This document shows positions 1-25,985 of a stretch of 29,902 nucleotides of DNA, piece by piece (the first letter of the stretch is position 1; the number at the start of each line of letters is the position of its first letter). Position numbers and translations under genes: made by a program. The notes below the pieces were generated by a model, which saw only the letters and a program-made list of their open reading frames with translations, had not been told where the DNA came from and did not search any database. Source of the DNA: Selaginella moellendorffii (Eukaryota; Plantae; Lycopodiophyta). The DNA is taken from NCBI RefSeq assembly GCF_000143415.4, contig NW_003314493.1:1-29902 (forward strand), given 5' to 3'.

Positions 1-575
1 AAGGATAGTGGGATTTATATCTTCCGTTGGTGCAATTTGCTTACAACAATAGCCAACACAGTGGAACCAAGCTAAGTCCTTACTTTGCCATGTTTGGAAG
101 GCATCCTCGAACAGCGGTGGAGTTGGGATTGCATTTGAGTAAGGACGTTCAAGATAAGCTTGATTCCAAGGCAACTGATCTGGCCACAGAACTTGATGAG
201 ATTCTGGTGGTGTGCAAACAGAATTTGCAAGCAGCTCAGGATAGAGCGGAGAAGTTTGCCAATGAGCATCGCCAATTCCGGGAATATAAGGTGGGTGATC
301 TCGTCTTTGTGCGAGTGATCTTTCCGTCAAGTGAGCGGCGGAACACCTTGGTGCCTTTACGGACAGGGAAGAGTGATAAACTTTCCCATCGATATGCTGG
401 TCCATATGAAGTGCTAGAGCGCATTGGTAAAGCGGCTTATCGGGTGCGGCCGCCAGCTGGGGTGAAAATTCATCCGGTATTTTATGTCAGCCAGTTGAAA
501 GGTGTACTATCTCGGAGTGACGGGCCCAATGCCTCCTTGATGTATACGGCTGTGGAAGATGGACCAGGAGCTTGA
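1..575 (+). pseudogene. Ty3/Gypsy integrase C-terminal region (element 1, 5'-truncated by the window)
   Basis: Translation WDLYLPLVQFAYNNSQHS...SPYFAMFGRHP...KVGDLV...RYAGPYEVLERIGKAAYR...IHPVFYVSQLK is the Gypsy integrase/GPY-F signature. There is an in-frame TAG at 6-8 and no intact chromodomain. Confidence 0.92.
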
Positions 576-882: not shown

Positions 883-1239
883 TGGCGTTCCATTTGACGT
901 GTGTAAGGAACTAAAAAAGGAAACGGCTCAACGGCTTCTTAACAGTATGAATGAGTACCATCCAAAGCGAGGGGTGGAAAACTGGAAGCCAATCCGTCTT
1001 GAAGGCATTGTGCTGCAAATTAGTCCGGACTTTGCTAAAGAAATATTCGAATACAATCCATTCGATGATGCCGAAGATATGCTTGACATATGTATGAAGA
1101 AAGAATTGTTGTAGATTAGACTTTATAGAATAAAAGTAATATTATTCTATGAAAAATTTGTTATTAGTATTTGAAAAGAAAAAACCAGTTTGACATAAAA
1201 GGATCAAAATCATCAGGTTCCAACTGTCATGCATGCAAA

Positions 1240-2387
1240 TGTAAGCCACAAATTTTTCCTTTCCACTTTGCCAGCTTACCTCGCCTATCCGCCCAACACT
1301 GCCTTGGCTTTTGCTAAGTTCCCTCGCCAAGGTTCTCGCCTATGGTACCAGCTCCTACTTGGTTTCAGCTACTCACTGCACGAGCAACGGAGTGTTAGCC
1401 ATCCTTCCATGGATTCCCAAATCACTCCCAATCCCCCTCCCCAGGTTAGACTGGACTTAAGGTTCGGCTACACTCCCCGCAAGCACAAGCAGCCAAGCAC
1501 ACCAAGCTTCCAGGTTCCTAACATCCCTTGGTACCACAAGACTTGATCATGGGACCCTCTAAATCCCAAGTCTTGAGTGCATCACTTGCTTCGGGACGCC
1601 GGGGCGAAACACCGTGGCCTAGCGGCCCGGTATGGGTACCTCTCGCCCCCCACTTCCATCCCGAAGGAAGGCCCAAGCCCCTAGGAAGGGCGAGGACCAA
1701 TGAGCCGCATGGTACTCAAGTGGGGCACCACTCCACATGAGCCAGGAGCACCGCAATCGGTTTCCCTTTCGGGAGTGGGAGCTGCTCTTGAGCACTTCCT
1801 TGGATGGCCCCTCCGGCACCAGCCAAGTCCATGCTCACTCCCACCCAAGGCCCCTCGGTCCCAGTCCCAACCTCAAGTCGGTTTGGAAGCCCAACTGGAG
1901 AGTCCCTTCTAAACTGGTTCCTGGACCTCACTATCCCTACTATACTTTTGGAACCCCCTGCAGCCCCCCCCCCCTGGGAGACGCACGCTTTGGGCTTTCA
2001 CCCCTTGACCCGTATTAGTATTTGGACTTAGTCTCTGGCTCGATCTCGGACCCGATTTCGGATCCGACTTCGGATTCGGGTTCGGACTTGATCACGGACT
2101 CGATCTCGGACCCGATCTCGGACCCGACCTCGGACTCGACCTCGGACTCGGTCTTGGACCCGATTTCGGATCTCGGACTCCGTCTCGAACTCGGTCTCGA
2201 ACTCGGACTCGAACTCGGTCCCCGAGTCGGTCTCGGACTCGATTCCGGACTCTATCTCGAACTCGGTCCTAGAGTCGGTCTTGGACTCGATCCTCGACTT
2301 GGTCCCATCCGATGAACTCTTTGTCACTTCGGTCAAGCTTTTGGGGATCCTTTAGCCTACGACATCTCGGGGAGTCGGTTCCTTACA
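1240..2387 (-). repeat. 3' LTR of chromovirus
   Basis: TGTAAG...CTTACA termini. Direct repeat of 7623-8770, with 4 substitutions found by eye. Confidence 0.97.
2036..2300. repeat. Degenerate 6/12-bp CpG-rich tandem repeat (CTCGGA/CTCGAT) within the LTR; second copy 8419-8683
   Basis: Visible periodic tcggac/tcgatc units, giving low-complexity SDPI/RDRV pseudo-ORFs. Confidence 0.9.
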
Positions 2388-2400
2388 ACTCCACCACCCA
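2388..2400 (-). other. Polypurine tract of chromovirus
   Basis: Minus strand TGGGTGGTGGAGT abuts the 3' LTR start. Confidence 0.75.
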
Positions 2401-2790
2401 TAGAAGAAGTTCGATGCCCACATCGAACGTCTCGTTTTATCCTACGACTTGTTGTCCATGTCTCCGGGGGCATCCCCCCACTTAGCGGTGTGCCTAAGTT
2501 AGCCTCCCCGGCCCAGAGCCCATGACAACGGAATATAGGTGTCCCTATACTCCTTACCTCACCACGCCCTAGTATAGGGTCGGGACTTGAACCCAGCCTT
2601 GCTTTACTAGGGGGTTGGGACTCGAACCCAACCTCCGTAGAATACGTCTACGGATTCGACATCCCCGCAGGGAGTCGGGCGTAGTGCCCTACGCCTGGTC
2701 GACCTATCCAACCCATGCTAATTAGCTTACCTTTGGCGCGCCTTCGGGTCCCAACATATGCCATTAGCTCAACTTTGCAAACTGATATTT

Positions 2791-3172
2791 TTAATTGAAT
2801 TTTGCATAAGTACATAGAGTTCTGCCTTGCAGAAATTCCTCCACTAGATCTCGCGCGTTTGCTAGGTTCTCCTCCGGTTCCCATGTTGCTTCGCAGTGTG
2901 GAAATCCTTTCCACTTCACATGGAACTCTCTCACCTCGCATCCTTGTCGCTTGCTCTTGCGCGCATTGAGGATGGCCTCGACTTCGTATTCCTCTTCCCC
3001 TTGGATAACCTCAGGTAAAGGTCTCACTTGGTCCTTGCGAAGCGGATCCTCAAAGTACGGCTTGAGTAAGTTCACGTGGAACACCGGGTGCATCTTCCCC
3101 ATCTCTCGAGGAAGTCGGAGTCGGTAAGCCACTTTACCGATTCGTGCCTAAATCTCGTAAGGCCCCGCGAAC
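2791..3172 (-). CDS. gag-pol exon 3: integrase GPY/F region and chromodomain (in-frame TAG at 3148-3150 in this copy)
   Basis: FAGPYEI*ARIGKVAYRLRLP...MHPVFHVNLLKPY...EYEVEAIL...FHVKWKGFPHCEATWEPEENL, a canonical chromodomain with aromatic cage residues. Confidence 0.9.
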
Positions 3173-3224
3173 CTGCTTAAGGAACTCAAGATCAATTCAT
3201 TTACGGGAATACATGCATCTTTAC
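3173..3224 (-). other. Putative spliceosomal intron 2 (52 nt, phase 2) in integrase
   Basis: AAG|GTAAAG...TTAAGCAG|GTT. Removal gives KLTQR-FAGPY. Confidence 0.85.
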
Positions 3225-3642
3225 CTTTGGGTCAACTTTCGGCTGATCCCACTTGGTAGTCTGAGGTTCTTGGTGTTCAGCCACACCTTCTCCCCAGCTT
3301 GGAACTCTACATCCCGACGCTTCTGGTTCGCGTATTTGGTTTGCCTTTGTTGAGCCCGTTCCAAGGAATCCCTCACTAGATTCCAAATGCTGAGTCTTTC
3401 TGCCGTGAATGCCTCCACTGCGGGCAACTCTCCATGATACTCGGCCACGCCGAGTTCCACAGGACCTTCAATAGCTCGCCCATTGATGACTTCCCATGGA
3501 CTCACCCCGATGCTTGAGTGTGGTGAGTTGTTATAACACATTTCCGCAAGTCCCAAATGACTTACCCAGTCGGTCTGGTCTCCCGAGACATAGCATCGCA
3601 AATAATCCTCCAGCTGCCTATTCACCCTTTCCGTTTGTCCGT
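3225..3642 (-). CDS. gag-pol exon 2: integrase core C-terminal part with catalytic Glu
   Basis: DGQTERVNRQLEDYLRCYV...WVSHLGLAEMCYNNSPHSSIGVSPW...YANQKRRDVEFQAGEKVWL. Confidence 0.92.
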
Positions 3643-3689
3643 CTGTCAAGAAGTGTTAGTGCCATCAATCTTGACTTAATACCCATTAC
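3643..3689 (-). other. Putative spliceosomal intron 1 (47 nt, phase 1) in integrase
   Basis: CAG|GTAATG...CACTAAC (branch site)...TTCTTGACAG|AC. Removal gives YHPQTDGQTER. Confidence 0.88.
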
Positions 3690-6600
3690 CTGTCTGTGGG
3701 TGATAGGCTGTGCTGAATTTCAATTTGGTGCGATACTGTTCTAGGAGTGCCCTCCAGAACCTACTAGTGAAGATCTTATCTCGATCTGAGATAATCTCTT
3801 CCGGCCTTCCCCGCACTCGAACCACTTGTTCAAAGAACAGCTTCGCCACACCTTCCGCATCCACGTCCATTGTGGTGGGTATGAAATGTGCCATCTTTGA
3901 AAATCGGTCCACCACTACGAATATCGCATCGAACCCCTCGCTTGGGGGTAGTCCCGTGATGAAGTCCATCGTAAGACATTTCCACGGGCGATCTGGAATG
4001 GGGATGCTTTGCAACAAGCCCCCACTAGCCTTAGTCACGGCTTTTACCTGCTGACATGTTGGGCATGTCTTTACATAGTCTTGGACGTCCTTAGCCATAT
4101 CTGGCCAATGGTACTTCCTTTTGAGTAAGCCCATTGTCTTGGGCACTCCGCGGTGTCCCGCAAGAGGTCCGTCATGACACTCTTCTAAGGCCACCTTCCT
4201 TAGTTCCCCTTCTGGAACATACACCCTCGTTTGCTTGTAATAGATGAGTCCGTTGCGTTCCGCATAGCCCGTTTTCTCTTCCGTTGGCAGCTCACCTCTC
4301 TGGTGAGCTTCCCGCGCCTCTAGATTCCTCAGCAACACTTCTTGTGCTAGACCATCGTTCTCATATGCTGTCCGCACATCGTCCCAGAAGGTTGCTGTTG
4401 CACTGGATATTGCCAACCTCAAGCTCGCTTTTCGACTTAGCGCATCCGCCACGATGTTGCTCTTCCCAGGCTTGTACAGAATCTCGCAATCAAACTCAGC
4501 CAAGGCATTGGCCCACCGACCTTGTTTCCCTCTTAGGTCGGGCTGTGACAAGAAGTGTTTCGTTGCCACATTGTCCGTGTAAACCTTGAAGTGTCTCCCA
4601 AGGTAGTGTCGCCACTCCTTGAGTGCTTTGACCACCGCAAACAATTCCTTCTCGTGGGCAGGCCACTTCCGTTGAGCCTTGTCCAGCTTCTTCGAGAAGA
4701 ACGCTACCGGATGGTTGTCCTGCTTCAAAACTGCGCCCAACGCAAAGTCCGAAGCATCCGTTTCTACCTCAAAGTCCTTACCAAAGTCTGGTAATGCCAA
4801 TACGGGAGCCTTCCTCAACTTCCCTTTGAGGTGGACGAATGCCGCCTCGCATTCTGCTGTCCATACCATCTTCCCTTTTCCTGTTTGGTTCGTTAAGGGC
4901 AGGGCTACTCTCGAATAGTGTCTGATAAACTTTCGATAGTAGTTGCATAGCCCCAGGAACGCCCTCAACTCATGTACATTCGATGGTCGCTCCCATTCCT
5001 GGATCGCTTGGACCTTCTCCGGGTCCACCTTGAGCCCGTCCTGGCCCACCACATGCCCGAGAAACTTTACCTCTTGTTGAGCAAAGTCACATTTGCTCTC
5101 TTTAGCATACAGTTTGTGTTCCCTTAGTTTCTCAAACACCTTCGCCAAGTGTTCGGCATGCTCTTCTAGCGTCTCGCTATAGATCAGGATGTCGTCGATA
5201 TAGACGACCACGAAGTGATCCAGATAGGGTACAAAGACGTGGTTCATCAACGCCGAAAACGTTGCCGGCGCATTGCACAGCCCAAAGGGCATCACTAGAA
5301 ACTCAAAGCTCCCATACCTTGTTCGACAGGTTGTCTTCTCGACATCTTCCTCAGCTACCCTGATCTGGTAGTATCCTGACCTTAGGTCAATCCTCGAGAA
5401 GTATTTTGCCTTTCCCAACCTATCGAACAGGTCCTCAATCCTTGGCAAAGGGTACTTGTTCTTCTTGGTATACTTGTTGAGCAACCGGTAATCTATGCAC
5501 ATGCGCATAGATCCATCTTTCTTTTTCACAAATAATACTGGCGCCCCATACGGCGACTTGCTCAACCTAACATACCCTTTGTCCACCAACTCCTCTAGTT
5601 GGCACTTGAGCTCCTTGAGTTCCTTTTCGTTCAAACGATAGGGTGGACGAACCACCGCCTCAGCGCCCTCGACCAGCTCAATCTTATGTTCTATCGGTCG
5701 TGCGGGGGGCAACCCCGCCGGTAGCTCCTCCGGCATGGTATCCTGGAATTGGTCTAACACTCGCTGGATCACTAAAGGCACTTTTTCCGTTCTTGTCTTT
5801 TTGTCACTCTTCACCGAGAGTAAGCACAAAAAGGCTGCCTTAGTTCCTTTAGTGAGTTGTCCTCTCGTGGACACCAGGTTTAAGCAGGATTCTTTGGCCT
5901 TGCTTTGCCCTACCTTTAGATCCTGGGCTTCCACCCTAGATCTTCTTCCTTGGGCATTCGCCAGTACCACAAGGTTTCTACCTTGACCATGCAGGGCTAC
6001 CACGAATCGATTGAACCAGTCCATTCCGAAGATCACGTCAAATCCCGCCATGTCCAACACGGTGAAATCCATGTCCACCTTCCAAGTCCCCACTTCGACT
6101 CTCGCTTGTCGAAGTACCTCATCGGTGCTTTGGCTACCTTGAACAAACTCTATAGTCCTTGGTTCGCCTAGCCGCTGCACCGTTAGTCCGGCTTGCCGGA
6201 CTATGTCTGCAGCCACAAAATTATCCGAAGCACCCGTGTCAATAAGGATCTTAACAAAGCTACCTCCGAGCTTCCCTCGGAGGGCTAGTAGATGTCGCGA
6301 ACGACTCTCTACCAAAGTTGCTCGTGTAATGAGTAACTTTGAGTTAGGGACTGGATCACATACCTCATTTTGGACTTCACCCGACTTGATGGCCATATTG
6401 GCTCTGGCCTTCTTCGGGTAGGGACATTCCCTCGAAAAGTGTCCCGCTTCACCGCAGTTGTAGCATACGTTGTTTCCCACGCTGCTATATGACTTGACCT
6501 TCTTATCCGTGGGTTTGTCTCTTTTCGCTTGACTCCCCCACGTACTTGCTCGCTGGCCACCGGATTTGCCTTTCCGGAATCCCGAGGACTCATTCTTAGA

Positions 6601-7563
6601 GAAACTCTTCTTGAATTTCCCCCTGCTATATGTTCCCCTCGGTTTGGCCCCTTTGTGAAACGTGGATCCCGACCCCGTCGTGTTCCCCTTTCGCAGGTTA
6701 TCGTTGAAATGCACCTTGATGGCCGCATCCAACGCTTCCTTGTAGTTGGTCGGGTTCCAGCGCATCACCTCACCGCGAGCCCAGGTTTGCAAACCTGATA
6801 TAAAGGCATGGAACGCATCCATATCCCCCATGTCCGTGACAAGTATCCTCTTTGCCATGAACCCATTCACATATTCCTGGATGGTTCCAGTCTGCTTCAG
6901 CCTACTCAGCTCATCTCTCAGATGCAGAGTGGCATTCGGAGGAACGTATGTCGCGCGGATCCTCGCCTTCATCATTTCCCAAGTGGCCACCGGTCCTTCG
7001 TTGGCCTCCGTTGTTCTCCACCAAGACTTGGCATTATCTGCCAAGTATGGTTTTGCACATGGGACCTTCTCCGAGCTCGGTAATCGCAACGCTCGGAAGT
7101 AGTCCTCCATATCGTAAAACCAATCCTCCACAACCTTATAGTCGTTCACTCCCTTGAACACCGGTGGGGGCTTTGGTTTGTACTTGGGAACTGCCTGAGG
7201 GACTGATTCCACTTCGGTCTGTTCGACCTTGTCTGGTTTTGCCTCAGTCCCTGCCGAAGGGTCCGCACCTTCTGCGCTGCCAGCATCCGCAGTCTTTCGC
7301 CTTTTCTTCCGCTTCTCGTCACGCTTTAGCTTGCGTACGAGAGTCTCCAGCAGGGCATTGGTCTGCGCCAATTGACCTTCTAGAACGTCCAATCGAGCCT
7401 TGGACGACCGAACCTCGCCACCGGACTCCTGTTTGGAAGTTTCCTCACTAGAGTCCTCCTCATGCAAGGATTCCTCATCCATAGCCTCTTGTTCGACCGG
7501 AGGCTCCAGCTCTGGCGGAGGTTCTGTCTCCGCCTGGGTTCGCTTACGCCCTGCCCTTGCCAT
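3690..7563 (-). CDS. gag-pol exon 1: Gag, CCHC knuckle, protease, RT, RNase H, integrase N-terminal part
   Basis: Motifs: [14 protein letters not shown]; [10 protein letters not shown]; [12 protein letters not shown] and YIDD; [13 protein letters not shown]; [12 protein letters not shown]; MDFITGLP; SDRD. The unspliced ORF stops inside intron 1 at 3676. Confidence 0.97.
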
Positions 7564-7607
7564 CTCCCAGCAATCCGCCTCTATCCTTCGCTAGAACTGA
7601 GGAGAAA

Positions 7608-7619
7608 GCTCCGATACCA
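7608..7619 (-). other. Primer binding site, tRNA-iMet type (TGGTATCGGAGC)
   Basis: Lies 3 nt inside the 5' LTR end, with one A>G difference from the canonical TGGTATCAGAGC. Confidence 0.9.
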
Positions 7620-7622
7620 AAT

Positions 7623-8770
7623 TGTAAGCCACAAATTTTTCCTTTCCACTTTGCCAGCTTACCTCGCCTATCCGCCCAACACTGCCTTGGCTTTTGCTAA
7701 GTTCCCTCGCCAAGGTTCTCGCCTATGGTACCAGCTCCTACTTGGTTTCAGCTACTCACTGCACGAGCAACGGAGTGTTAGCCATCCTTCCATGGATTCC
7801 CAAATCACTCCCAATCCCCCTCCCCGGGTTAGACTGGACTTAAGGTTCGGCTACACTCCCCGCAAGCACAAGCAGCCAAGCACACCAAGCTTCCAGGTTC
7901 CTAACATCCCTTGGTACCACAAGACTTGATCATGGGACCCTCTAAATCCCAAGTCTTGAGTGCATCACTTGCTTCGGGACGCCGGGGCGAAACACCGTGG
8001 CCTAGCGGCCCGGTATGGGTACCTCTCGCCCCCCACTTCCATCCCGAAGGAAGGCCCAAGCCCCTAGGAAGGGCGAGGACCAATGAGCCGCATGGTACTC
8101 AAGTGGGGCACCACTCCACATGAGCCGGGAGCACCGCAATCGGTTTCCCTTTCGGGAGTGGGAGCTGCTCTTGAGCACTTCCTTGGATGGCCCCTCCGGC
8201 ACCAGCCAAGTCCATGCTCACTCCCACCCAAGGCCCCTCGGTCCCAGTCCCAACCTCAAGTCGGTTTGGAAGCCCAACTGGAGAGTCCCTTCTAAACTGG
8301 TTCCTGGACCTCACTATCCCTACTATACTTTTGGAACCCCCTGCAGCCCCCCCCCCCTGGGAGACGCACGCTTTGGGCTTTCACCCCTTGACCCGTATTA
8401 GTATTTGGACTTAGTCTCTGGCTCGATCTCGGACCCGATTTCGGATCCGACTTCGGATTCGGGTTCGGACTCGATCACGGACTCGATCTCGGACCCGATC
8501 TCGGACCCGACCTCGGACTCGACCTCGGACTCGGTCTTGGACCCGATTTCGGATCTCGGACTCCGTCTCGAACTCGGTCTCAAACTCGGACTCGAACTCG
8601 GTCCCCGAGTCGGTCTCGGACTCGATTCCGGACTCTATCTCGAACTCGGTCCTAGAGTCGGTCTTGGACTCGATCCTCGACTTGGTCCCATCCGATGAAC
8701 TCTTTGTCACTTCGGTCAAGCTTTTGGGGATCCTTTAGCCTACGACATCTCGGGGAGTCGGTTCCTTACA
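7623..8770 (-). repeat. 5' LTR of chromovirus
   Basis: Direct repeat of 1240-2387, adjacent to the PBS. Confidence 0.97.
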
Positions 8771-10010
8771 GCAAAGTGTTCCATCAAAAGAGCAATAGGC
8801 TGCTGAGGACTACCTTGTCCAACTCTTTGAAGCCATCAATTTATGTGCCCTTCATGGCAAAAAGAGTCACAATAAGTAAGTATTCAAATAACACACACAA
8901 AAAGATTATAGAATTTATCAACCAGCTTGAAAATTATACATTTAGCCTGTCGGCTTAGAGGAACCTTGGAGCATTTCATTTGATACTACATTTCTTTTTC
9001 TTGCAAGTTCACTTAGAGTTTACCATGCAGCTTATACTTATTGATTAGAATCCTCAAATTTTCTTAGAAAATTGCTGCTACTTTCAGGCATAAATCACTG
9101 TTAATTTCAGTCATCCTCAACCACATATTTTTGGAAAATTAAATGTTCAAAATAAAACCACTGAAGCGTGAAAAAAATATGATCTCTGTTGGATCACTGG
9201 TATAACTACCCATTCTCTTGCTGTCAATGTACTTGTGACCGGAAATTTAAAAAAAAATAGGTGTTTGCTACTGATTCTTGGGTATGGGGTCATGATGAAT
9301 GAGAGAGATACAATGAACAGAGGTATTAATCATGGCGTCTAATCCCAGAACATTGATGGACATTGAATGTACATCAGTGTGATAGTTGATATAGTATAGT
9401 ATGTGAGAGTATATGGTATAGTGTGATGGAATGTATGATTATTTCATTTTATTAAGTTGGACCTTGTGTTTATTATACAAAGCTCAACATGGATGTGTAT
9501 GAAGACAAAAAGGAATGTTTGGCTTTTCGTTGCACTCTTTTCTGTTCTTCAAACACAATCTTGTTCAGAGTTGTGAATTGTGGTTATCAAGGTGGCTAAA
9601 AAATAGTCCACTGGCTATGTTACTGCTGCATGCGCAAATTCATTGTAACACAGCCAGTGGAGTATTTTTTGTGTTCAAGCTCAGGTCTGGGTATTCCTCA
9701 TGTAGCTTGAGCTTTCTCACGTGTAGATCCATTTATGATACTAGATTTTGACACAACACATTATAAGAAAGACCAGATACTAAACAACAGCATGGCTGTC
9801 CATTCGTCCAGTGTCAAAAAGGTATGTTTTCATGAAGATCTCATACATGAAATTACATGATAGATATGGAATCATGGTAAATATTTGCAGTATGCTTTTT
9901 CAGTAAAATGAACCACAAAATTATCTTAGGGAAGCTTCCTACATGTCCCATCAATGTCTTCAACCAGTTACCAATGGAATGGATAGATTTTCAAAAAGAG
10001 TCTATCGGTT

Positions 10011-10078: not shown

Positions 10079-10207
10079 CAAGACAAAAGAACAACCATCC
10101 CTCGATGGTGTCTTCCTAAAATCTATTTTCTCTTCACTACTGCCATACTGCTCTGTGCTCAAACTACTCTATTGCTATTTCACACTTAATCCACTTTCAA
10201 AAGCAAA

Positions 10208-13200
10208 ATGAACACAAGAAAAAGACGAGCAACAACAGAACTGGTTTTGAGCATTTCTGAAAATGTGAATAACACAAATGCACCACACATTAACGTACCA
10301 ATGAATCACTATATACAGAACAAAATGGGGCTCCTAAACACAAATCATGAAGGAAACTGTGAAGAAAACTACATAGGGCCAATGGACAAACAATGTGTCC
10401 ATTGCAGAGCTTTCCATTTTAATGCAGAAACAAAATCACAATGCTGTCATCACGGTCGTGTCCAAATAAAAAATAGAAACCATTTCCCTGAATTGATCCA
10501 GAGGTTGCTAGAAGGTAATTCAAACCAGGGAAATTTCAAAGAACTAATAAGGAACTATAATAGTGCTCTAGCATTTGCTTCCATGGGAGCAAACATCGAA
10601 GAATTTTCGGGTGGTGGACCATACTACTTTAAGATACACGGTCAAGTGTATCACCGAATGGGCAGCTTCAGACCACGAGATGATCAAGAAGCAATGTATT
10701 CACAACTCTATATTCTAGATACGGCACAAGCAACAGAAACAAGAATGAGAAATATGCATAACAAAAAATGCGACCGGGAACTAATGTACAGATTAGATGT
10801 TCTCTTACGAGAAATCAATCCCTATGCAAAAGCATTCAAGATGTTGCATGAGCTTGAGAATGAGATGTCTCTTTCATCACAAGAGATTGTCATGTACATC
10901 AAGGGAGAGAGCACAACAGATCCTCGAAGATACAATGCACCGTGTTCAAATGAAATTGCTGCCATTTTTACAAATCCAAGTGGGAACCCACCATTTGACC
11001 GTAGTATAGCAGTCTATCCAAAGGAAGAATCAATGCAGGAAATATCAATCATTTCATCATGTTGTGACCCTATGATCTACCCAATTCTTTTTCCCAGTGG
11101 AGAGGACGGATGGTCAAATGATATAAAATACACAGATAACGGCAATACACTTAAACGTTGTAATGTCACAATGATGGAATTTTATCAGCACAAATTTGCT
11201 ATACGGGGCATATGTCACAATGGCATAAGAAGCATATATTTCAACCCTGTGTTGACAGCAGGAAAACTCACACAACAATACATGGTCAATACATACACCA
11301 AGATTGAAGGTGGCCGACTAACATGGATAAGAAACCACCAACGTGAGCTACGTGCTGAAGCATACGGTGGCCTCTCAGATTTCGTGAAAAACAGAGCCGA
11401 ACAGGAAGGGGTACGTGCTGGAAAACTAATAATACTTCCATCCTCATTCACTGGAGGCCCACGACAGATGAATCAGAACTACCAGGATGCCATGAGCCTT
11501 GTAAGGAAGTATGGAAAACCTGATTTGTTCATAACATTCACCTGCAATCCTAAATGGAAAGAGATCACTGAAAACCTTCTACCTGGACAAACAACTGCAG
11601 ATAGACCTGACTTGGTTGCACGTGTGTTCCACATCAAGAAACAAGAACTCATAGATGACATTTACAAACGAGAAATATTTGGCCAGGTCAATGCTTATGT
11701 CTATGTGATTGAATTCCAAAAAAGAGGACTGCCACACTGTCATATTTTGGTGATCCTTGGTAAAGATAATAAAATCAGAACTATCGATGACATAGACAAT
11801 ATAGTTACTGCCGAAATACCAGATGCCAGACTAGACCCAGAATTATATGAATTGGTTAAAAAGCACATGATACATGGGCCTGAATTGGCCTGAATTTCCA
11901 AACAGCCCATGCACGAAGGATGGTGAATGTAAGTCACACTATCCAAGAGATTACTGTGAAGAAACACAGAATGTCGGTGGTCAGTTTCCAGAGTATAGAA
12001 GGCGCCAAGAAGGACATACAGTCCTAATAAAGAACAAACCCATTGACAACAGGTTTGTTGTGCCATACAACAAGTACCTCTTACGTAAGTACAGAGCACA
12101 CATAAATGTCGAGGTGTGTTCCACTGTAAAAAGTGTCAAGTATATATTCAAATACATATACAAGGGACATGATTGTGCGGAGGTACGCCTTCGAAGGGAT
12201 GAGAACTCAACACCAGAACAAGTACTAGACTGGGACGAAATAGAGGCTTTCAGAAACTGCCGCTATGTCTCCGCATCAGAAGGAATATGGAGGATCTATG
12301 GATATGACTTACATGGGAGATCACATTCTATTGAGAGACTGGACATCCACCTGGAAAACCTTCAAAATATTTATTTCAATGATGGTGAGGAAGAGGTTGC
12401 ATTACAAAGAGGCCGTAAAACCAAACTGACAGAATGGTTTGAGCTAAACAAGATTGATGAATTTGCAAGGACACTCTTGTACCACGAGATTCCTGAGTGG
12501 TATACATGGAATTCAAGAAACAGAATGTGGACACCACGCCAACGTGCATTCAAGGTGGTTGGTAGAATGTACACTGTATCACCACATGACTCTGAACGTT
12601 TCTACCTACGTATGATCCTGCTCTACAAAAAAGGTGCTACAAGTTTTAGTGATTTAAAGGTATTAAACGGTGTTGCATATGACACATACCGTTCTACTGC
12701 ACAAGAAATGGGACTTCTACAGGATGATTGTGAGTGGGAGAAATGTTTAGAAGAGTCGTTGACATTTCAGATGCCTGCAAAAGTAAGGTATCTATTCAGT
12801 GTCATGTGTTTATTTTGCGAGCTCATTGATCCCAAAAAACTATGGGATAAATTCAAGGAAGGGATGTGTGAAGACTTGGTCCGAAATCACAACAACTATG
12901 AAGCAGCAATGCAACATGGATTGAATGAAATGTCAATATTACTCCAGGAACATGGCAAGAAACTGTCTGACTACGAGTTACCAGATCCAGAGTTTATAGG
13001 AGTTAACGAAACAACAACTGAAACAAGATGTGTGCCATGCACACCTGATGAAGCTGAATTACTAAAAACCAGATTGAACAAGGAACAGCTTCACATATTT
13101 AACAATGTCTTGAATGCAATACAAAACAAAAAAGAAACAAGCAGATTATTCTTTGTTGATGGTGTAGGAGGCACAGGGAAATCATACCTTTTTAACACGT

Positions 13201-14461
13201 TGATAAAATATGTTACTGCTTATGGCATGAAAGTCTTAGCAGTCACGTGGACAGGAATAGCGAGTACTCTTCTTGTAGGAGGCCGAACGGCTCATTCAAC
13301 ATTTAAGCTTCCAGTACCAATCACAGAAACATGCACCTCGGACCTGCGAGAGAATTCAGCACCTGCCGAGGTCATAAGAAGAGCTGACCTGCTCATATGG
13401 GACGAAATAAGCATGGTACCCGTTCACGCTTTTAAAGCTGTCGAGAGGGTCTTGCGTGATATAAAAAACTGTGATACAGAATTCGGTGGCATCACATTAG
13501 TAACAGGAGGAGATTTCAGACAGACATTACCTGTTCTAAAAAGAGCCCGTCGCACACAAATTATCCAAAACAGCATGAAATCCTCACCAATATGGTGGAA
13601 ACTTGTAAAGTTCTCATTACATACAAACATGAGGGTGAACTCTGAAGAAAAGGAATGGTCTAGATGGCTTGTGAAGCTTGGAAATGGTAACCTACCTAGC
13701 CTCCAAGGATTCAACCAAGAAGTTATAAAATTACCTCTAACATCGACATCCAGAGAACAAATGATAGATAATGTGTTTGGAAAGCATATACAACCAAATG
13801 ACCCAAACCTATCACAGAAAGCTATTCTCACGACTTTAAATGATCTCTCTCTACAAATGAACGACAAGTTCTTTCGAGAATGACTGGCAGAACAATAACA
13901 TACAGAAGCATTGACATTGTAGAAACAGATTCGGAAGAAGAGATGTTGGACTATCCTGTAGAATTTTTAAACTCAGTAACACCATCTGGAATGCCTCCAC
14001 ACAAGCTACAGGTAAAAATCGGATGTATTGTAATGTTGTTACGCAACATTGACACTAAAAAAGGCCTCTGTAATGGCACTAAACTAATTATAACCAAGGC
14101 ACTACCAAATGTTATAGAAGCTGAGATTCTACATAATGGTATGCAAGGAAAAAAAGTCCTCCTACCAAGAATCTCTTTAAAACCAACTGAAGGAGACATG
14201 CCATTTATCCTCAAACGATGACAATTCCCAATAAGGCTTGCATTCTCCATAACAATTTGCAAATCTCAGGGACAAACATTACAGAATGTGGGTATTTACT
14301 TGCCAAGACCTGTTTTTGGCCACGGTCAACTTTATGTTGCACTTTCAAGAGGAACATCAAAGAAACAAATTACAATGTCTATTGAACAATGTGAAGGACA
14401 AGGTGTGCTCCAGAGCCATAATGTCTATACGAAAAACATTGTGTACAAAGAAATTCTCTAG
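10208..14461 (+). pseudogene. Helitron Rep (HUH endonuclease)/Pif1-family helicase, intronless, with two frameshifts and one nonsense codon
   Basis: Rep motifs PDLFITFTCNPKW, VIEFQKRGLPHCHIL and KYIFKYIYKG. Helicase motifs GVGGTGKS, DEISM, GGDFRQTLPV, GLCNGT, KSQGQT and [10 protein letters not shown], ending KNIVYKEIL* at 14461. Lesions at ~11880, ~13875 and TGA at 14219-14221. Confidence 0.96.
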
Positions 14462-14496
14462 GATTCATGTCACCAATGTAACAGATGTCCTATATA

Positions 14497-14523
14497 TCCC
14501 AGCAGAGCTGGATTCCCTGCTAG
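14497..14523 (+). terminator. Helitron 3' terminus (GC hairpin + CTAG, followed by T)
   Basis: TCCCAGC-AGA-GCTGGAT-TCCCTG-CTAG|T, ending about 60 bp after the helicase stop. Confidence 0.8.
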
Positions 14524-15423
14524 TTAACTGTATGTGTATGAAGTATGTGTATGAAACTTAAAATTCTCTTTAATGAAAGGAATATAAAACCTTTAGATCT
14601 ATATGATTATCCAATAAATGTTTGTAGGAAATCAATAGATCGACCAGAGTTTGCTCAATGCAGTTTTATTGAATCTTTTCCATTTTTAGAGTGCATTGAA
14701 AAAGAAAAATAGGCTTATAAGTGGAAACTACCATTGCCAGATTCTTGTCCTTATAATGCGTGTATTCAACAGATCCATTCAAGGTCGTTTCATTGGCAAG
14801 GCAGGAGAAGATTTGACAAATAACAATAGAACGGGGTTTATTCACCAGGCCAATCCTTTTTCACAAAGAGCTTATTTTAAATATTTTTAAGTTAATGTCT
14901 GATTTGAATGCTAACATTTTTCCCTCTGAAACTATATATTCCACTAATGTTTCCCATATACTTTTGGCCTAATTCTAGAGGGGTTTTGCACCCACTATTA
15001 AATAAGTAAATTTAATGGTAATTCATTCATACCACCACACTATTACATTAGATTTTGTAAACTCTAATTTAATAGTTGAATTTAATGGTTACTTGTTCAC
15101 ACCAGAAATTAACACTAAAGTAAGCTGATGTTACAGTTAGAATTTTATTTTTTTGCATTTTTCACTAAAATCCTAATGCTACAATTTTGTAATATCGTCA
15201 TTATCATCATCATCATCATCATCATATCATACTCATATATTTAAACAAAAGAGCCCGTATAATAATAGCATATACTGGGGACACTTATTCTGGGCATATG
15301 CCAAAATCTAACGGCTGAGATTAGACAATGTAAAGTCGTGACTTTTGGGATCATAAAAATTTTCAATTGTCTTTTAGGGTGCATGACCACAAGGAGAGAG
15401 CATCGATCATTGCTTGTGGGAAG

Positions 15424-15426
<3 letters not shown>

Positions 15427-15468
<42 letters not shown>

Positions 15469-15496
15469 CTGCCTCTGTGAGTGTGTGTGTGTGTGT
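15427..15496. repeat. (CT)18 and (GT)8 microsatellites; an (ATC)n tract lies at ~15203-15224
   Basis: Directly visible. Confidence 0.95.
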
Positions 15497-16281
15497 TTGA
15501 TGGAACGATTTAGAAGGCTACAGTCAGCTGTACATGATGCCACTGGTTGGTTCATTCTCGAGTTCAAAAGCTCACGCACCAGAAAATGACAATCATTTAA
15601 CCAACGCCGAAGCGTTCTTCAACAGGAGAATTATCCAGTTCGTGAAGAAACGAGTCGCACTTATGGAAAAAGTACTAACGCAGAATATCATCTGGTAAAA
15701 GAGTCTCGACCCCCTATTGTCGTCCCTGCGATTCTAACTTGAGATGTTCCAGGATGACCAAGATATTACGGCCAATCGCAGCAACGGTGGCATCGAGCCT
15801 GGCGAGGGACCAAAAACCTCCTACCAAAAGCCGCAACCCGCATTTGTTCCTTATCCAACACCTTTGAGTGAGTTCCTTCGATTTAGACACTAGAAAAAAC
15901 TCTAATGCGTTCGTTTTTCGACAGCTCCGGAAGAAGTCCTGGGAACAGCACTGGATAACGATCCTAAGCGGCTGAAAGCTCCAGCCTATTACAACGAGGT
16001 TGTGTTTGTTTCTCCATTTGAAAAGGTTTGAGAGGCTCACGGCTTTCTCTGTGTCGCCATAGTTGTGCTCGATGATCAGTGAGAACAGGATCGACGCCTT
16101 CCAGACTTATGCGGGGAACAAATCCACCAGCATCCGCCTGCGCAGGTGCATTTGGCAGATCGACGTGCTCTGCTTGGAAATGCGACGAGGATTGGGAGTG
16201 AAAGGCGAAGAGGCTATGATGGATGGAGCTACGACAGGGACGACGTCTCGGACAATGAGGGGATTCACGTTGTCATCGACA

Positions 16282-16471
16282 ACTAGAATCAAGGTTCTTC
16301 ACTCTCTTGCTTGTCGCTATTCTTCTTTCGGGTCTCTCAAGTCCCTGTTTGTTCCAGGTTCTCAAGGCTGGAACCACGACTAGAATCAAGGTTTTTCACT
16401 CTCTTGCTCTTCGCTATTCTCTTTCGAGGCTTAAAGTTCCTGTTTGTTCCAGGTCCTTGAGGCTGGAACCA
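16282..16471. repeat. Two tandem ~97-bp units, each with a GTTCCAG..CTGGAAC hairpin
   Basis: Units start ACTAGAATCAAGGTT at 16282 and 16379. The 16332-16497 segment recurs at ~24030-24197. Confidence 0.85.
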
Positions 16472-16689
16472 AGAGAAAAAATAGAAATTTTCGTCCACGG
16501 TTTGCTTCCTTGTTCTTCAGTTTTGCGTTTTTAAAGCATTGAGAGGGATTTCTATTTTGCAGCGCTATAAACCCTGTAGTCTCAACATGGATAGTCATAC
16601 GGGACAGCCATACATGGTGCTCTTCAGTTTATGACAAGTTCTCTTGAGGAAATGTTGGCAGTCAAGCACAAAAAAACTGGCTTGAAGGA

Positions 16690-17620
16690 CATGATGGAAT
16701 ACTCTCTTATAACAGTTCATATCTGAGGGTTTCATGTCTAACTCTCTCTCCTGTCACTTTGCAGCATTAGGAACGAAACAAGGAGAGCGAGCTCCTTGAT
16801 TCTTCACTGTTGATAAGTTTCTTTCTCGCATTTTTTGCAGTTGTCACTGTTTCTGAGTCTCCACAATGAATGCTTTGGAAATGGGTATGTATGTGATTTA
16901 CAGTCTTTGCAACGTAAGTTGAATGTGTTTGCAAAAGAACAGGTCATGAGTACTGGGAAGATGAAGGCATTGAAGAAAAAAAGCCAGCATGCAGGCAAAT
17001 GATGAACAAACATATTTCACCCATATGATCCTGTCACTTACAGGTATCAATATACTGCTGTGTTAGCAGTGTTTACATTTATCCTTTCGTCTTGATTACA
17101 GAGTGGAACCTCTGATATCTATTCCTTTTGGAGAAAGTCAGTGAATATCTTGGGATACAGGTAAACATAGTGCTTTGTAAGTTTTGCTATCAAAGCTAGA
17201 GGAAGTTCTTCGGTTGGGGTATGGTTTTGTCACAGCTTTTTACGGCAGTATGGTGACAGAAAGGCTATCTAGAAGTCCCAATGGTAGAGTCGACTTAATG
17301 CTACAGGTAAGTCTTGCTCTTTGCTATCACGTCATTCTCGTGTGGATCCAGGATACAAAATTTAAGCTCCACTACATATCGCTATCTGATCAACGACAGC
17401 AGTGGCTGGAGAGAGAGAGAGGAGATTTGGAGTCTGAATCACAGCAGTAGCAGCAGCAGCATCACCAGTGAGAAGATCTCAAGGCCATGAGAATCCTCCA
17501 CCAGTTTGGGATCAGTCACATGTACGTAGCAGCCAGGTGAGAGGGGCAGTGCGAGGGACAGGGACGAAGATCTCACGAGGGACAGGGATGAAGATCTTAC
17601 AGGGTCCGTCATCACCCGAT
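16690..17620 (+). repeat. Diverged module, copy A (copies B ~20900-21445 and C ~21450-21975)
   Basis: Shared blocks CATATCTGAGGGTTT (A and B), TAAG(T/C)TTCTTTCTCGCA, CTTACAG, ACATGTACGTA and GGGACAGGGATGAAGATCT occur in the same order. Boundaries are approximate. Confidence 0.75.
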
Positions 17621-19570
17621 TGATGAGGTCCTGGTTTGCTCTATCACTTTGGAGCCATCTCTGAATGGCAAGGTGAGCTTCAACGTGGTGGCAGTGATCC
17701 AGAGCAGCAGCTCTAGAAGTGGTAATGATGACCATGCGTTTCTCTACAAGGACATGGTGCTGTACAAATCCAATTACTATTAGCATCACATGTCTGAGGA
17801 CAAATTAAGTGAAGTGGTGCCAGATTGAATTGTATTTGTGTTGTAATACTACATTATATATAAGGTGTCTCCTACCCTTGACTGGCTACAAAAAATAGCA
17901 AATGTCTTTCCCTCTTTGCTCTAAGTGAGCACTCTGACCAACACACATAACAGTAACATATGTGTCGAGAAGGCCAAGTACAAGCCCACTGCTCAGTTCA
18001 AGCTCAAAGTCCTCTACATTTATATCAACAGCTCCTCTACATAATCAGGCTGTGTACTCCACATGAACCATGGAGCCTAGAGTTGGCCTGTCACAAGATG
18101 TCTCTTCTCCTCTGGTTTTCCTGTTGAAGCACTAAGCAACAAGTAAGCAATACAAAGCTTACACCATATCACTCACGGTCACTTTTGCAAAAGCTTACTT
18201 AAATTCCACGCTTGCGCAGACTCAGAATCATGTAAATATGAGCGCACACTCGCAGTTATGCTCGCTGTCCCAATACAGAATTTTCCTCCTCTTTAGTGCT
18301 ACTGATATCAGCACATGGAACTGCACACTCACTAAAGAGAATCCATTCACTGCGAAGAGGAACCCACCAAAAAAAATCCCTCCCATGCTGTTTAGAACTC
18401 TCATAGCAGGCAGGAAGATAGGGCTTCACGCATTCTTCCAGGGCTTGAGCATGGAGTTGGGACGGTAGCATTCTCTGTGGTAGTGCCATTGCTAGGGATT
18501 TCAATATAACATGTTCTTGGGGCCTAGATCGAGAAGCTTTATGGAACCACTCCACTGGAATCATCTCCACATGGTGGGGTAGCCTCGAGATTGTTATGAT
18601 GATCCCTATTTGTCTCTGTCTTTCCTTCACATGATGTGGTGGAGAACACAAGGACAACAACAACATTGGCTTCGCATAATGAGCCTCTGGGAAAGTCCTA
18701 CAAACAGTTCCATACGGTTCTCAACTATTTGTGGCGTATGGATCACAGATTTGGTGACTCTTGTACTCAGTGTGCTGCCTAACTCTTCACTTATTTCCTC
18801 TGGGAATGATCAGAAAGTAATAACTTGAACAATGTTTTCTCTGCTTCTAAATTTCCAGGCACTTCCACTCTTGTATGACCCTGATGATAATGAGAATGTG
18901 GATAATGTGGACTTATCACACGAGCACGTACTGTGGGAGACTTTCTCAAGAGAACTAAACTAATACAAGATGCAGATAGGTTCATCAAGAGAATGTCATT
19001 CACTTCTTAGTGACTGCTTAGTGCCTGTAAAGTTCACGAGGACTTGGAGAGATGATCAAAAGGTGGCGATGGATATGCTTAAGTGTGTGAAGCGTGAGCA
19101 TATGAGTTCTGTGCTTTGTAGGAGCTTCATTGTTGCCGAGACTTGAATTCAAACTATCTCTTTATTTTCTATCTAAGTCATGTGTATATGCACTGTTAGC
19201 ACAACTATTATATAGAAACTGAATAAGAGTTTTGATGGATGGCTCAAAAGAAGTTAGGTTGATTCAAAAAATACCTCTCCAAATTTTTTAAGAGATGGAG
19301 AATGATAACTCCACAATGGTGAGATGTGATGGTAAGAATTAAGGACTAATGCTTAACATAAACATGAAGTTTACCTATGTATGTATTAAGTTTCTAAGCA
19401 TAAAAAGTGGCAAGAGGAAGATGGATAAAGACAATAAATTCTACACAACCAACCATGCAAACAAACCGTCAAGTAGGCAACAATCAAAAGTAAAAGCAAA
19501 ATAAGTGTTAGATAAAATGCAAAACATCATGGATGAGTTGACAAGAACTTGTCAAGTGAAATGCTGATGA

Positions 19571-19790
19571 NNNNNNNNNNNNNNNNNNNNNNNNNNNNNN
19601 NNNNNNNNNNNNNNNNNNNNNNNNNNNNNNNNNNNNNNNNNNNNNNNNNNNNNNNNNNNNNNNNNNNNNNNNNNNNNNNNNNNNNNNNNNNNNNNNNNNN
19701 NNNNNNNNNNNNNNNNNNNNNNNNNNNNNNNNNNNNNNNNNNNNNNNNNNNNNNNNNNNNNNNNNNNNNNNNNNNNNNNNNNNNNNNNNN
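19571..19790. other. Assembly gap (220 N)
   Basis: Run of N. Confidence 1.
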
Positions 19791-25125: not shown

Positions 25126-25198
25126 ATTGGGGATTTTCCAGGCCATGAACGATTTCAAGCTTTACAAGTTCAATAGTTGGCTTGTAGAGCTTGCTGAT

Positions 25199-25985
25199 TT
25201 ACTTGACACTGCCAAGAGCTCTTGCTTTGCTGCACAGCACCTGTTTTTGGATCTTGCCAGTCGCAGTTTTGTCCAAGGCTGTGAGAATGACGATGCTCTT
25301 TGGCACCATGAACTTTGGTAAATGCTGTCGATACAACAAGAGTATCTCCTCCTTGTTGCTTCTCACGCCGTGCTTGAGGGACACAAACGCACATGGAGAC
25401 TCACGCTGTGCTTGAGGGACACAAACGCACATGGACCACTGCTCATCTGGCTGCGCCACCACAGCAGCTTCCAACACTGCTGGATGCCTGGATGAAAAAG
25501 AAGCAAACTTTAACAAGAAACAAAGAAGGAAAAACTCTCCTTTTACCTGTACAAGATGCTCTCCACTTCCAGGCTGCTAATGTTCTCCCCTCCAGAAATG
25601 ATAATATCCTTGGCTCGATCCTTGATCTTGATGTATCCATTGGGATGCCAAACTGCCAAGTCCCCAGAGTCTGGATTGTTCAAGTATCCCTTGAACACCA
25701 TGTTCCCACGTACGCAAACTTCGCCAATGGTGACACCGTCCTTGGCAACCGGTTCTAGAGTTTCATCTCTGATAATGTATTTGTCTTATTTGTTTGGTTC
25801 TTCGTCACTCCTTACTCGCTCGCTGCTTCTGCTAAATTTTTTTGCTTGCTAGCTCGGAGTTGAGCACCTGTAAGCCATCGAGGCAAACGTATTTCACGCC
25901 CTGCCGAGCCTTGAGCCTGGCCTGCTCATCGGGCAAAAGGCTGTCCCATTCGGGATTCCACTCGCACACAGTGCATGGACCACAG
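25199..25985 (-). pseudogene. Acyl-activating enzyme (AMP-binding, plant AAE clade) 3' fragment
   Basis: GPCTVCEWNPEWDSL..LKARQGV; [19 protein letters not shown]; [35 protein letters not shown]; HPAVLEAAVVA; KTATGKIQK. 59-nt intron at 25488-25546, plus an internal deletion and insertions. Confidence 0.92.

Follow-up and report, generated by a model that had tools for sequence, protein, structure and literature searches.

Two short spliceosomal introns interrupt the integrase gene of a Ty3/gypsy chromovirus from Selaginella moellendorffii

A full-length chromovirus and its family

Here, we analyzed a 29,902-nt stretch of the Selaginella moellendorffii genome (contig NW_003314493.1; hereafter, the window), the minus strand of which carries a full-length Ty3/gypsy element of 7531 bp. 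The Gag-PR-RT-RH-INT order inside LTRs, together with a target duplication, is that of Ty3/gypsy chromoviruses. A chromodomain (PF00385, E 1e-16) lies at the integrase C-terminus, in exon 3, where it is joined to the remainder of the polyprotein only via splicing and, in the window copy, is severed by a private stop. The features, all on the minus strand, are as follows.

8771..8775, minus strand: target site duplication, upstream copy, 5 bp
7623..8770, minus strand: 5' LTR, 1148 bp, TG...CA, with a 12-bp tandem array and an 11-nt poly-G tract
7608..7619, minus strand: primer-binding site, presumably of the tRNA-Met type
3690..7563, minus strand: exon 1, encoding Gag with a CCHC knuckle, protease, RT, RNase H, the integrase zinc finger and the first two catalytic Asp residues
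3643..3689, minus strand: intron 1, 47 nt, phase 1, splitting the Asp codon of HPQTDGQTE four codons 5' of the catalytic Glu, with a 5-nt direct repeat at its ends
3225..3642, minus strand: exon 2, encoding the catalytic Glu, the remaining integrase core and the linker
3173..3224, minus strand: intron 2, 52 nt, phase 2, immediately 5' of the GPY/F motif, with a 4-nt end repeat
2791..3172, minus strand: exon 3, encoding the GPY/F-SH3 module and the chromodomain
3148..3150, minus strand: in-frame stop private to the window copy, a mutation or an assembly error
2790..2795, minus strand: ATTAAA, candidate internal poly(A) signal, in an AT-rich island where the chromodomain frame ends
2388..2400, minus strand: polypurine tract, short and imperfect
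1240..2387, minus strand: 3' LTR, 1148 bp, with 4 differences from the 5' LTR (0.35%)
1235..1239, minus strand: target site duplication, downstream copy, 5 bp

The primer-binding site departs at a single position from the form common in plants, and its assignment to tRNA-Met follows the description of the family (PMC3350952). The LTR divergence of about 0.35% claimed in an earlier note on this DNA was recovered as such and, along with the flanking 5-bp target duplication, points to recent retrotransposition with the introns already in place. The 12-bp arrays span 8355-8692 and 2008-2309. The 3' non-coding region of the element contains two putative motifs (2628-2618 and 2593-2583, minus strand) that resemble a tRNA T-loop or a Pol III B-box, and a search of this region for tRNAs and Rfam families returned no match. 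A potential 124-nt intron (2730-2607, minus strand) in the 3' untranslated region has the best donor of the element (8/9) and a top-five acceptor.

By its anatomy, rather than by sequence alignment, the element matches SM1-Galahad of S. moellendorffii. In the description by Novikov et al. (2012, PMC3350952), SM1-Galahad is about 7.5 kb long, with an ORF1 of 3885 bp (1295 aa) lacking a chromodomain, a Met primer site, LTRs of 1076/1146 bp with poly-G, and two short downstream ORFs, one of which contains the chromodomain; the family comprises hundreds of copies, none given as intact, and was published as three ORFs, with the same 1295-aa break in the multi-copy reconstruction. The window element shares the element size, the LTR length, the run of 11 G and the Met primer site with this family, and its exon 1, read without splicing from 7563 to a stop at 3676-3678, yields an ORF of the identical 1295 aa. 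Unlike the published three-ORF organization without an intact copy, however, the three frames here are exons of one gene. The sister family SM2-Galahad, likewise present in hundreds of copies, has the same domain order and a single ORF of 4731 bp (1577 aa) with a group I chromodomain (PMC3350952), and thus, unlike the window element, no frame-breaking introns.

The earlier note had allowed that such introns might already be described; the family indeed was, whereas the introns are not mentioned in that work, the main text of which contains neither "intron" nor "splic" (0 occurrences in PMC3350952). Our literature search returned no description of introns in either Galahad or the integrase of a chromovirus; Repbase, the primary Ogre splicing paper, the Selaginella genome paper and probably the supplementary element tables were outside its scope and may contain an earlier mention. 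Such introns are also absent from the available portions of PMC2864245 and bioRxiv 10.1101/2022.12.06.519325.

Elsewhere in the window, a Helitron Rep/helicase (PF14214, PF05970) is encoded in three successive frames at 10190-14221 (plus strand), the breaks between which could be introns or frameshifts. An AAE7-like acyl-activating enzyme gene at 25187-25981 (minus strand) is piecewise 58-93% identical to S. moellendorffii proteins and looks degenerate; the best three matches of this host gene are all from S. moellendorffii (71-78%), with one exon at 93%; on their own, these matches support the genus. An assembly gap of 220 N is located at about 19570-19790.

Integrase introns in DNA and transcripts

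Both segments interrupting the gag-pol frame are true GT-AG spliceosomal introns. Intron 1 (GTAATG...CACTAAC...TTGACAG) and intron 2 (GTAAAG...AAGCAG, with a weak branch motif) are 38% and 37% GC, respectively, compared with 51-52% in the exons, and merely 1.8% and 0.6% of the 50-nt windows of the coding region are as AT-rich. The marks of U2-type introns, namely, GT-AG ends, a branch-like motif and an AT-rich interior, are thus present, the branch motif of intron 2 being the weak one. Both lengths shift the frame: translation through a retained intron 1 stops 4 codons past YHPQT, and through a retained intron 2 directly after KLTQR. The borders, lengths, signals, frame shifts and in-frame stops reported in the earlier note were all re-derived from the sequence, as was the spacing of 35 residues between the catalytic Asp and Glu upon removal of intron 1. 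The same spacing is found in all 164 measurable homologues, and the motif is uninterrupted in 177 of the 207 proteins retrieved. In the alignment to the Ty3 integrase (PDB 7Q5B), the last residue covered by exon 1 is 1267 and the first covered by exon 2 is 1269, the gap being exactly the one split codon. The exon lengths sum to the single frame of 1558 codons that had been proposed, which, in the window copy, is nevertheless closed by the stop at 3148-3150. At intron 2, two acceptors lie in tandem at a distance of 3 nt (3173-3177), and use of the alternative one would preserve the frame. The earlier note put the host introns of the window at 52-82 nt; one candidate host intron (17044-17101) is 58 nt long.

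Among the 24 matching sequencing runs, we compared the assembled contigs of eight (X1, X2, X4, X8 and X16-X19). X1 and X2 are DNA from a single shared sample; X4 is a small run of unrecorded type from a different sample; X8 and X16-X19 are RNA by guess, with no matching run on record as RNA, and come from three studies (X8 and X16 from the first, X18 and X19 from the second, X17 from the third). In X1, the depth is 0.99 million over intron 1, against 0.95-1.14 million in the adjacent sequence, and 0.79 million over intron 2, against 1.0 million, that is, about a fifth lower. Given this high DNA depth across both, the introns are carried family-wide in DNA. They are not private to the window copy; inserts private to it, together with a lack of spliced reads, were what the earlier note had named as evidence against its own reading. 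The complete joint table of X2 (11,401 contigs) contains no intron-free junction at either intron and includes four unrelated deletions (depth 8-12) that we read as single copies. X4 retained both introns at a depth of about 41, with zero joints, and no intron joint occurs among the 15 of 23 joints listed for X1. As in BARE1, no DNA copies of the spliced form were recovered, with 0 exact joints in X2 and X4, of which one sample is deep. The used AG of intron 2 is altered in about 15% of the X2 depth, and loose contig ends at 3690 and 3220 mark sublineages with an identical donor and a diverged intron interior.

The predicted junctions, 3690^3642 and 3225^3172, were sought in transcripts and recovered as exact skips in contigs of runs guessed to be RNA from two studies; these contigs are not molecules and are blind to ends, strand and levels. 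In X8, one 2500-nt contig runs unbroken through 4300-3690, 3642-3223 and 3170-2844, with both introns absent. In X16, the joints 3642^3690 (skipping 47) and 3170^3223 (skipping 52), both with CT..AC ends, occur at depth 9.36, with a short side of 101 nt, and the same two joints, again with CT..AC ends, are found in X19 at depths 2.71 and 2.02, the short side at intron 2 being merely 28 nt. The 2-base offset of the intron 2 joint is a slide permitted by the end repeat. X18 yielded a 180-nt intron-retaining contig (depth 6.3) and a 134-nt contig (depth 10.1) the length of which equals the same span less 47, the junction being deduced from this length. In X17, there are no joints, and all contigs retain the introns. 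Altogether, 4 of the 5 runs that are RNA by guess skip intron 1 and 3 skip intron 2; X8 and X16 assembled into the spliced form alone, and X18 and X19 into both forms. The intron-retaining contigs of X17, X18 and X19 may represent pre-mRNA, genome RNA or DNA carry-over. Exact removal in likely RNA combined with presence in DNA is the behavior of introns, as judged from contigs and a guessed run type.

In the window copy, the exon 3 stop lies seven codons into the exon, so that the chromodomain would not be translated from it. At position 3150, a letter other than that of the window accounts for 890,666 of 893,055 depth units in X1 (99.7%) and 41,034 of 41,135 in X2 (99.8%), and all six other runs compared have another letter as well. 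The X8 contig differs from the window copy at 29 of 1358 positions (97.9% identity), which argues that the transcripts come from sister copies rather than from the window copy. At positions 3260, 3515, 3518, 3724, 3832, 3988 and 4192, X8 and X17 match the window letter where more than 90% of the X1 depth does not. By these sequence comparisons, the expressed copies seem to represent a minor sublineage near the window copy.

The spliced frame of exons 2 and 3 is under constraint as strong as that of exon 1. Among the variants listed (those at 3-97% of the DNA depth, from 40 of 203 and 40 of 56 listed, with site 3150 left out beforehand), those synonymous in the spliced frame number 11 of 15 for exon 2 and 7 of 9 for exon 3 (18/24 combined), compared with 8 of 10 for exon 1, whereas the share expected for random transitions is 0.34 (combined p 5e-5). 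In the alternative frames, only 2/15 and 4/15 of the variants listed for exon 2 and 0/9 and 3/9 of those for exon 3 are synonymous.

Among 83 related genomic loci (42-53% identity), the insert is absent from site 1 in all 76 testable cases and from site 2 in all 35, and in a neighboring element of another gypsy family (end at 9-575, plus strand; LTR from about 667), the integrase tail crosses the intron 2 site uninterrupted. Given that the inserts are lacking both in these relatives and in the neighbor, the introns are gains relative to intron-free relatives. The 5-nt and 4-nt end repeats would fit insertion with a short duplication, and a search of the window for a source of the intron sequences found none. 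The protein searches recovered no close spliced relative; the two closest Gag-region matches (76% and 66%), which we considered as splicing evidence and rejected, look decayed, retain the Gag-PR linker and are silent on splicing. That the introns outlived retrotransposition, as had been suggested before, is supported, more directly than through LTR dating, by their family-wide presence in DNA, splicing in the contigs and the intron-free relatives.

Two proposed RNA pools and candidate gates between them

Intron loss upon reverse transcription is how retrotransposition was classically proven. New copies of this element carry both introns; therefore, the template is likely to be intron-retaining RNA. 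We consider it likely that the genome RNA retains the introns, whereas a separate spliced mRNA supplies the sole active integrase. Judging from integrase chemistry, unspliced RNA would encode Gag-PR-RT-RH along with an integrase stump devoid of the catalytic Glu; retention of intron 2 alone would cost the GPY/F module and the chromodomain; and only the doubly spliced RNA would encode an integrase with both the catalytic Glu and the chromodomain. By analogy with BARE1, there would be two RNA pools. Of the split system put forward in the earlier note, the splicing at both junctions, the family-wide presence in DNA and the gain of the introns stood, whereas the two-pool split itself fits the data and is still something that we infer. 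Splicing would also hold integrase below Gag, the frame having no frameshift. For selection to act on the exons of a non-genomic mRNA, a locus-level linkage is required, which a small number of active copies per cell would provide.

With an unspliced template and with spliced RNA common in at least some libraries, a gate against the copying of spliced RNA would be needed; such a gate would also account for the new introns not being purged. Two further introns are predicted on the minus strand, the first of which bears on how the gate might work.

7597..7662, minus strand: predicted leader intron, 66 nt, spanning the end of the LTR and the primer-binding site, with donor AG|GTAAGC and a pyrimidine-rich CAG acceptor; alternative acceptor at 7591
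6309..6363, minus strand: weak candidate optional intron between Gag and protease, with the donor after codon 400 and a CCCTAAC branch-like motif

The lead candidate, which we advance tentatively, is the predicted 7662-7597 intron, which would cut the primer-binding site from the spliced mRNA and block priming. Its donor at 7662, 40 nt before the LTR end, scores 7/9, equal to both confirmed introns, a score reached by 26 of 369 GT sites, and its acceptor at 7597, directly past the primer site, is among the top 5 of 568 AG sites by pyrimidine richness; the pair has a p of about 0.007 (a 22% chance of such a donor in 60 nt multiplied by a 3% chance of such an acceptor in 40 nt), for a pattern noticed post hoc. 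None of the nine LTR/PBS junctions of distant relatives inspected by eye has a donor equally clean, these relatives being too distant to judge. A second candidate gate would be internal polyadenylation at the ATTAAA that starts at 2795, 5' of the polypurine tract; this is the sole ATTAAA of the element, which contains no AATAAA anywhere. We discarded contig ends as support for internal poly(A): the spliced contigs stop at 2844 (X8) and 2948 (X18) and intron-retaining X17 passes 2700, but the places differ and contigs are blind to ends. An intron-borne packaging signal found no support either: the pairing of each intron with the LTR-leader or the 3' region does not stand out from that of shuffled sequences (best 5 of 60), folding is weak and purine tracts are absent from both introns.

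The candidate intron at 6363 would yield a Gag-only mRNA; with either acceptor (6321 or 6309), the frame shifts and a stop follows within 3-7 codons, and both acceptors are unremarkable, 104 and 208 of the 568 AG sites scoring as well. It is conceivable, although doubtful, that the partition is achieved wholly by splicing, with the predicted LTR-end intron stripping the primer site from every spliced mRNA so that none could be turned into DNA, the integrase introns, of the ordinary host type, gained behind this shield and, perhaps, an optional post-Gag intron, such that the splice state would pick among genome RNA, Gag-Pol mRNA and Gag-only mRNA.

Alternatively, there could be no dedicated gate, if spliced RNA were copyable but splicing rare where the family transposes, in which case intron-free copies would be rare or absent in the sample. 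This explanation accommodates the intron-retaining contigs of X17 and the two forms in X18 and X19, but it is unlikely given that only the spliced form was assembled in X8 and X16, that the spliced branch is the deeper one in X18 (10.1 vs 6.3), and that X2 lacks any intron-free junction although the family numbers hundreds of copies; moreover, a transposing cell still needs integrase from spliced RNA. The family could also be non-autonomous for integrase and borrow the enzyme from SM2-Galahad, the inserts being tolerated lesions that the spliceosome happens to excise. This sister family, free of introns and present in hundreds of copies, does share the genome, and the window copy was recently inserted and has a stop in exon 3. 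That stop is private, however, and exons 2 and 3 are constrained in the spliced frame like exon 1 (11/15, 7/9 and 8/10 synonymous, respectively, among the variants listed), which makes such borrowing quite improbable.

The joint-bearing contigs could also stem from an intron-free genomic master copy of other accessions, or from DNA, with splicing unneeded today, considering that the run types are guessed and that the joint-bearing samples are not the DNA sample. Yet the joint-bearing runs contribute 1-9 contigs compared with 11,401-18,859 from the DNA runs, both skips are GT-AG bounded in two studies, and the two forms coexist in X18 and X19. Furthermore, an exact intron-free copy requires prior splicing or an origin before both gains, although X8 is 97.9% identical to the window copy, so that a master copy of this kind is very improbable. 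A single gain of the introns followed by spread via DNA-level duplication, without an RNA intermediate, has nothing specific in its favor, and the intact LTR ends, the 5-bp target duplication, the LTRs that are 99.65% alike and the sublineages with diverged intron interiors render it extremely improbable. We thus favor the scenario of an intron-retaining genome RNA and a separate spliced integrase mRNA.

Known systems and implications

Intron-gated pol expression is known, and what is added here are integrase-core introns in a family published as broken. According to a 2025 review, plant LTR elements generally lack introns, the named exceptions being Ogre and EVADE (PMC12786077). In Ogre, which belongs to the non-chromovirus Tat lineage, a single genomic intron of about 274 bp, located between the Gag-PR and RT-RH-INT ORFs, is spliced from a subset of transcripts to give the full polyprotein (PMC6317226, PMC4408406, PMC12786077). 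As in Ogre, a splice is required to make an enzyme, but the Ogre intron gates all Pol enzymes and splits no catalytic motif, whereas protease and RT of the window element share one open frame. With no intron between protease and RT, the window element is not an Ogre. The likeness to BARE1 of barley is of a different kind. BARE1 has a short retained intron, the R region is missing from its translated RNA, packaging is restricted to unspliced RNA, and DNA copies of spliced RNA were not found (PMC3735527); a retained short intron is common to both elements, as would be the separate translated and packaged pools that, in the window element, we infer. In polarity, however, BARE1 and the EVD/Ty1-copia element of Arabidopsis, where splicing is coupled with early termination (PMC5580714), are the opposite: in these members of the Copia superfamily, splicing destroys Pol and yields a Gag-only mRNA. 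Foamy viruses, too, make Pol, including integrase, from a spliced mRNA distinct from their genome (PMC7828637), but, unlike here, their splicing removes gag for a subgenomic RNA and involves no short introns within an enzyme. Ogre and BARE1 are therefore precedents for the logic and not for integrase-core introns.

Two gained introns are thus present in the integrase gene of a family that was recently mobile and numbers hundreds of copies; one of them splits the catalytic motif, even though spliced RNA would encode the complete element. The family provides natural data for testing how a retroelement keeps its genome RNA and its mRNA apart and, with the short direct repeats at the ends of both introns and an intron-free sister family, by what route new spliceosomal introns emerge and are maintained. 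Our findings further suggest that other "broken" elements in genomes with short introns might have been misread, and SM1-Galahad itself, published without an intact copy, is likely to be functional.
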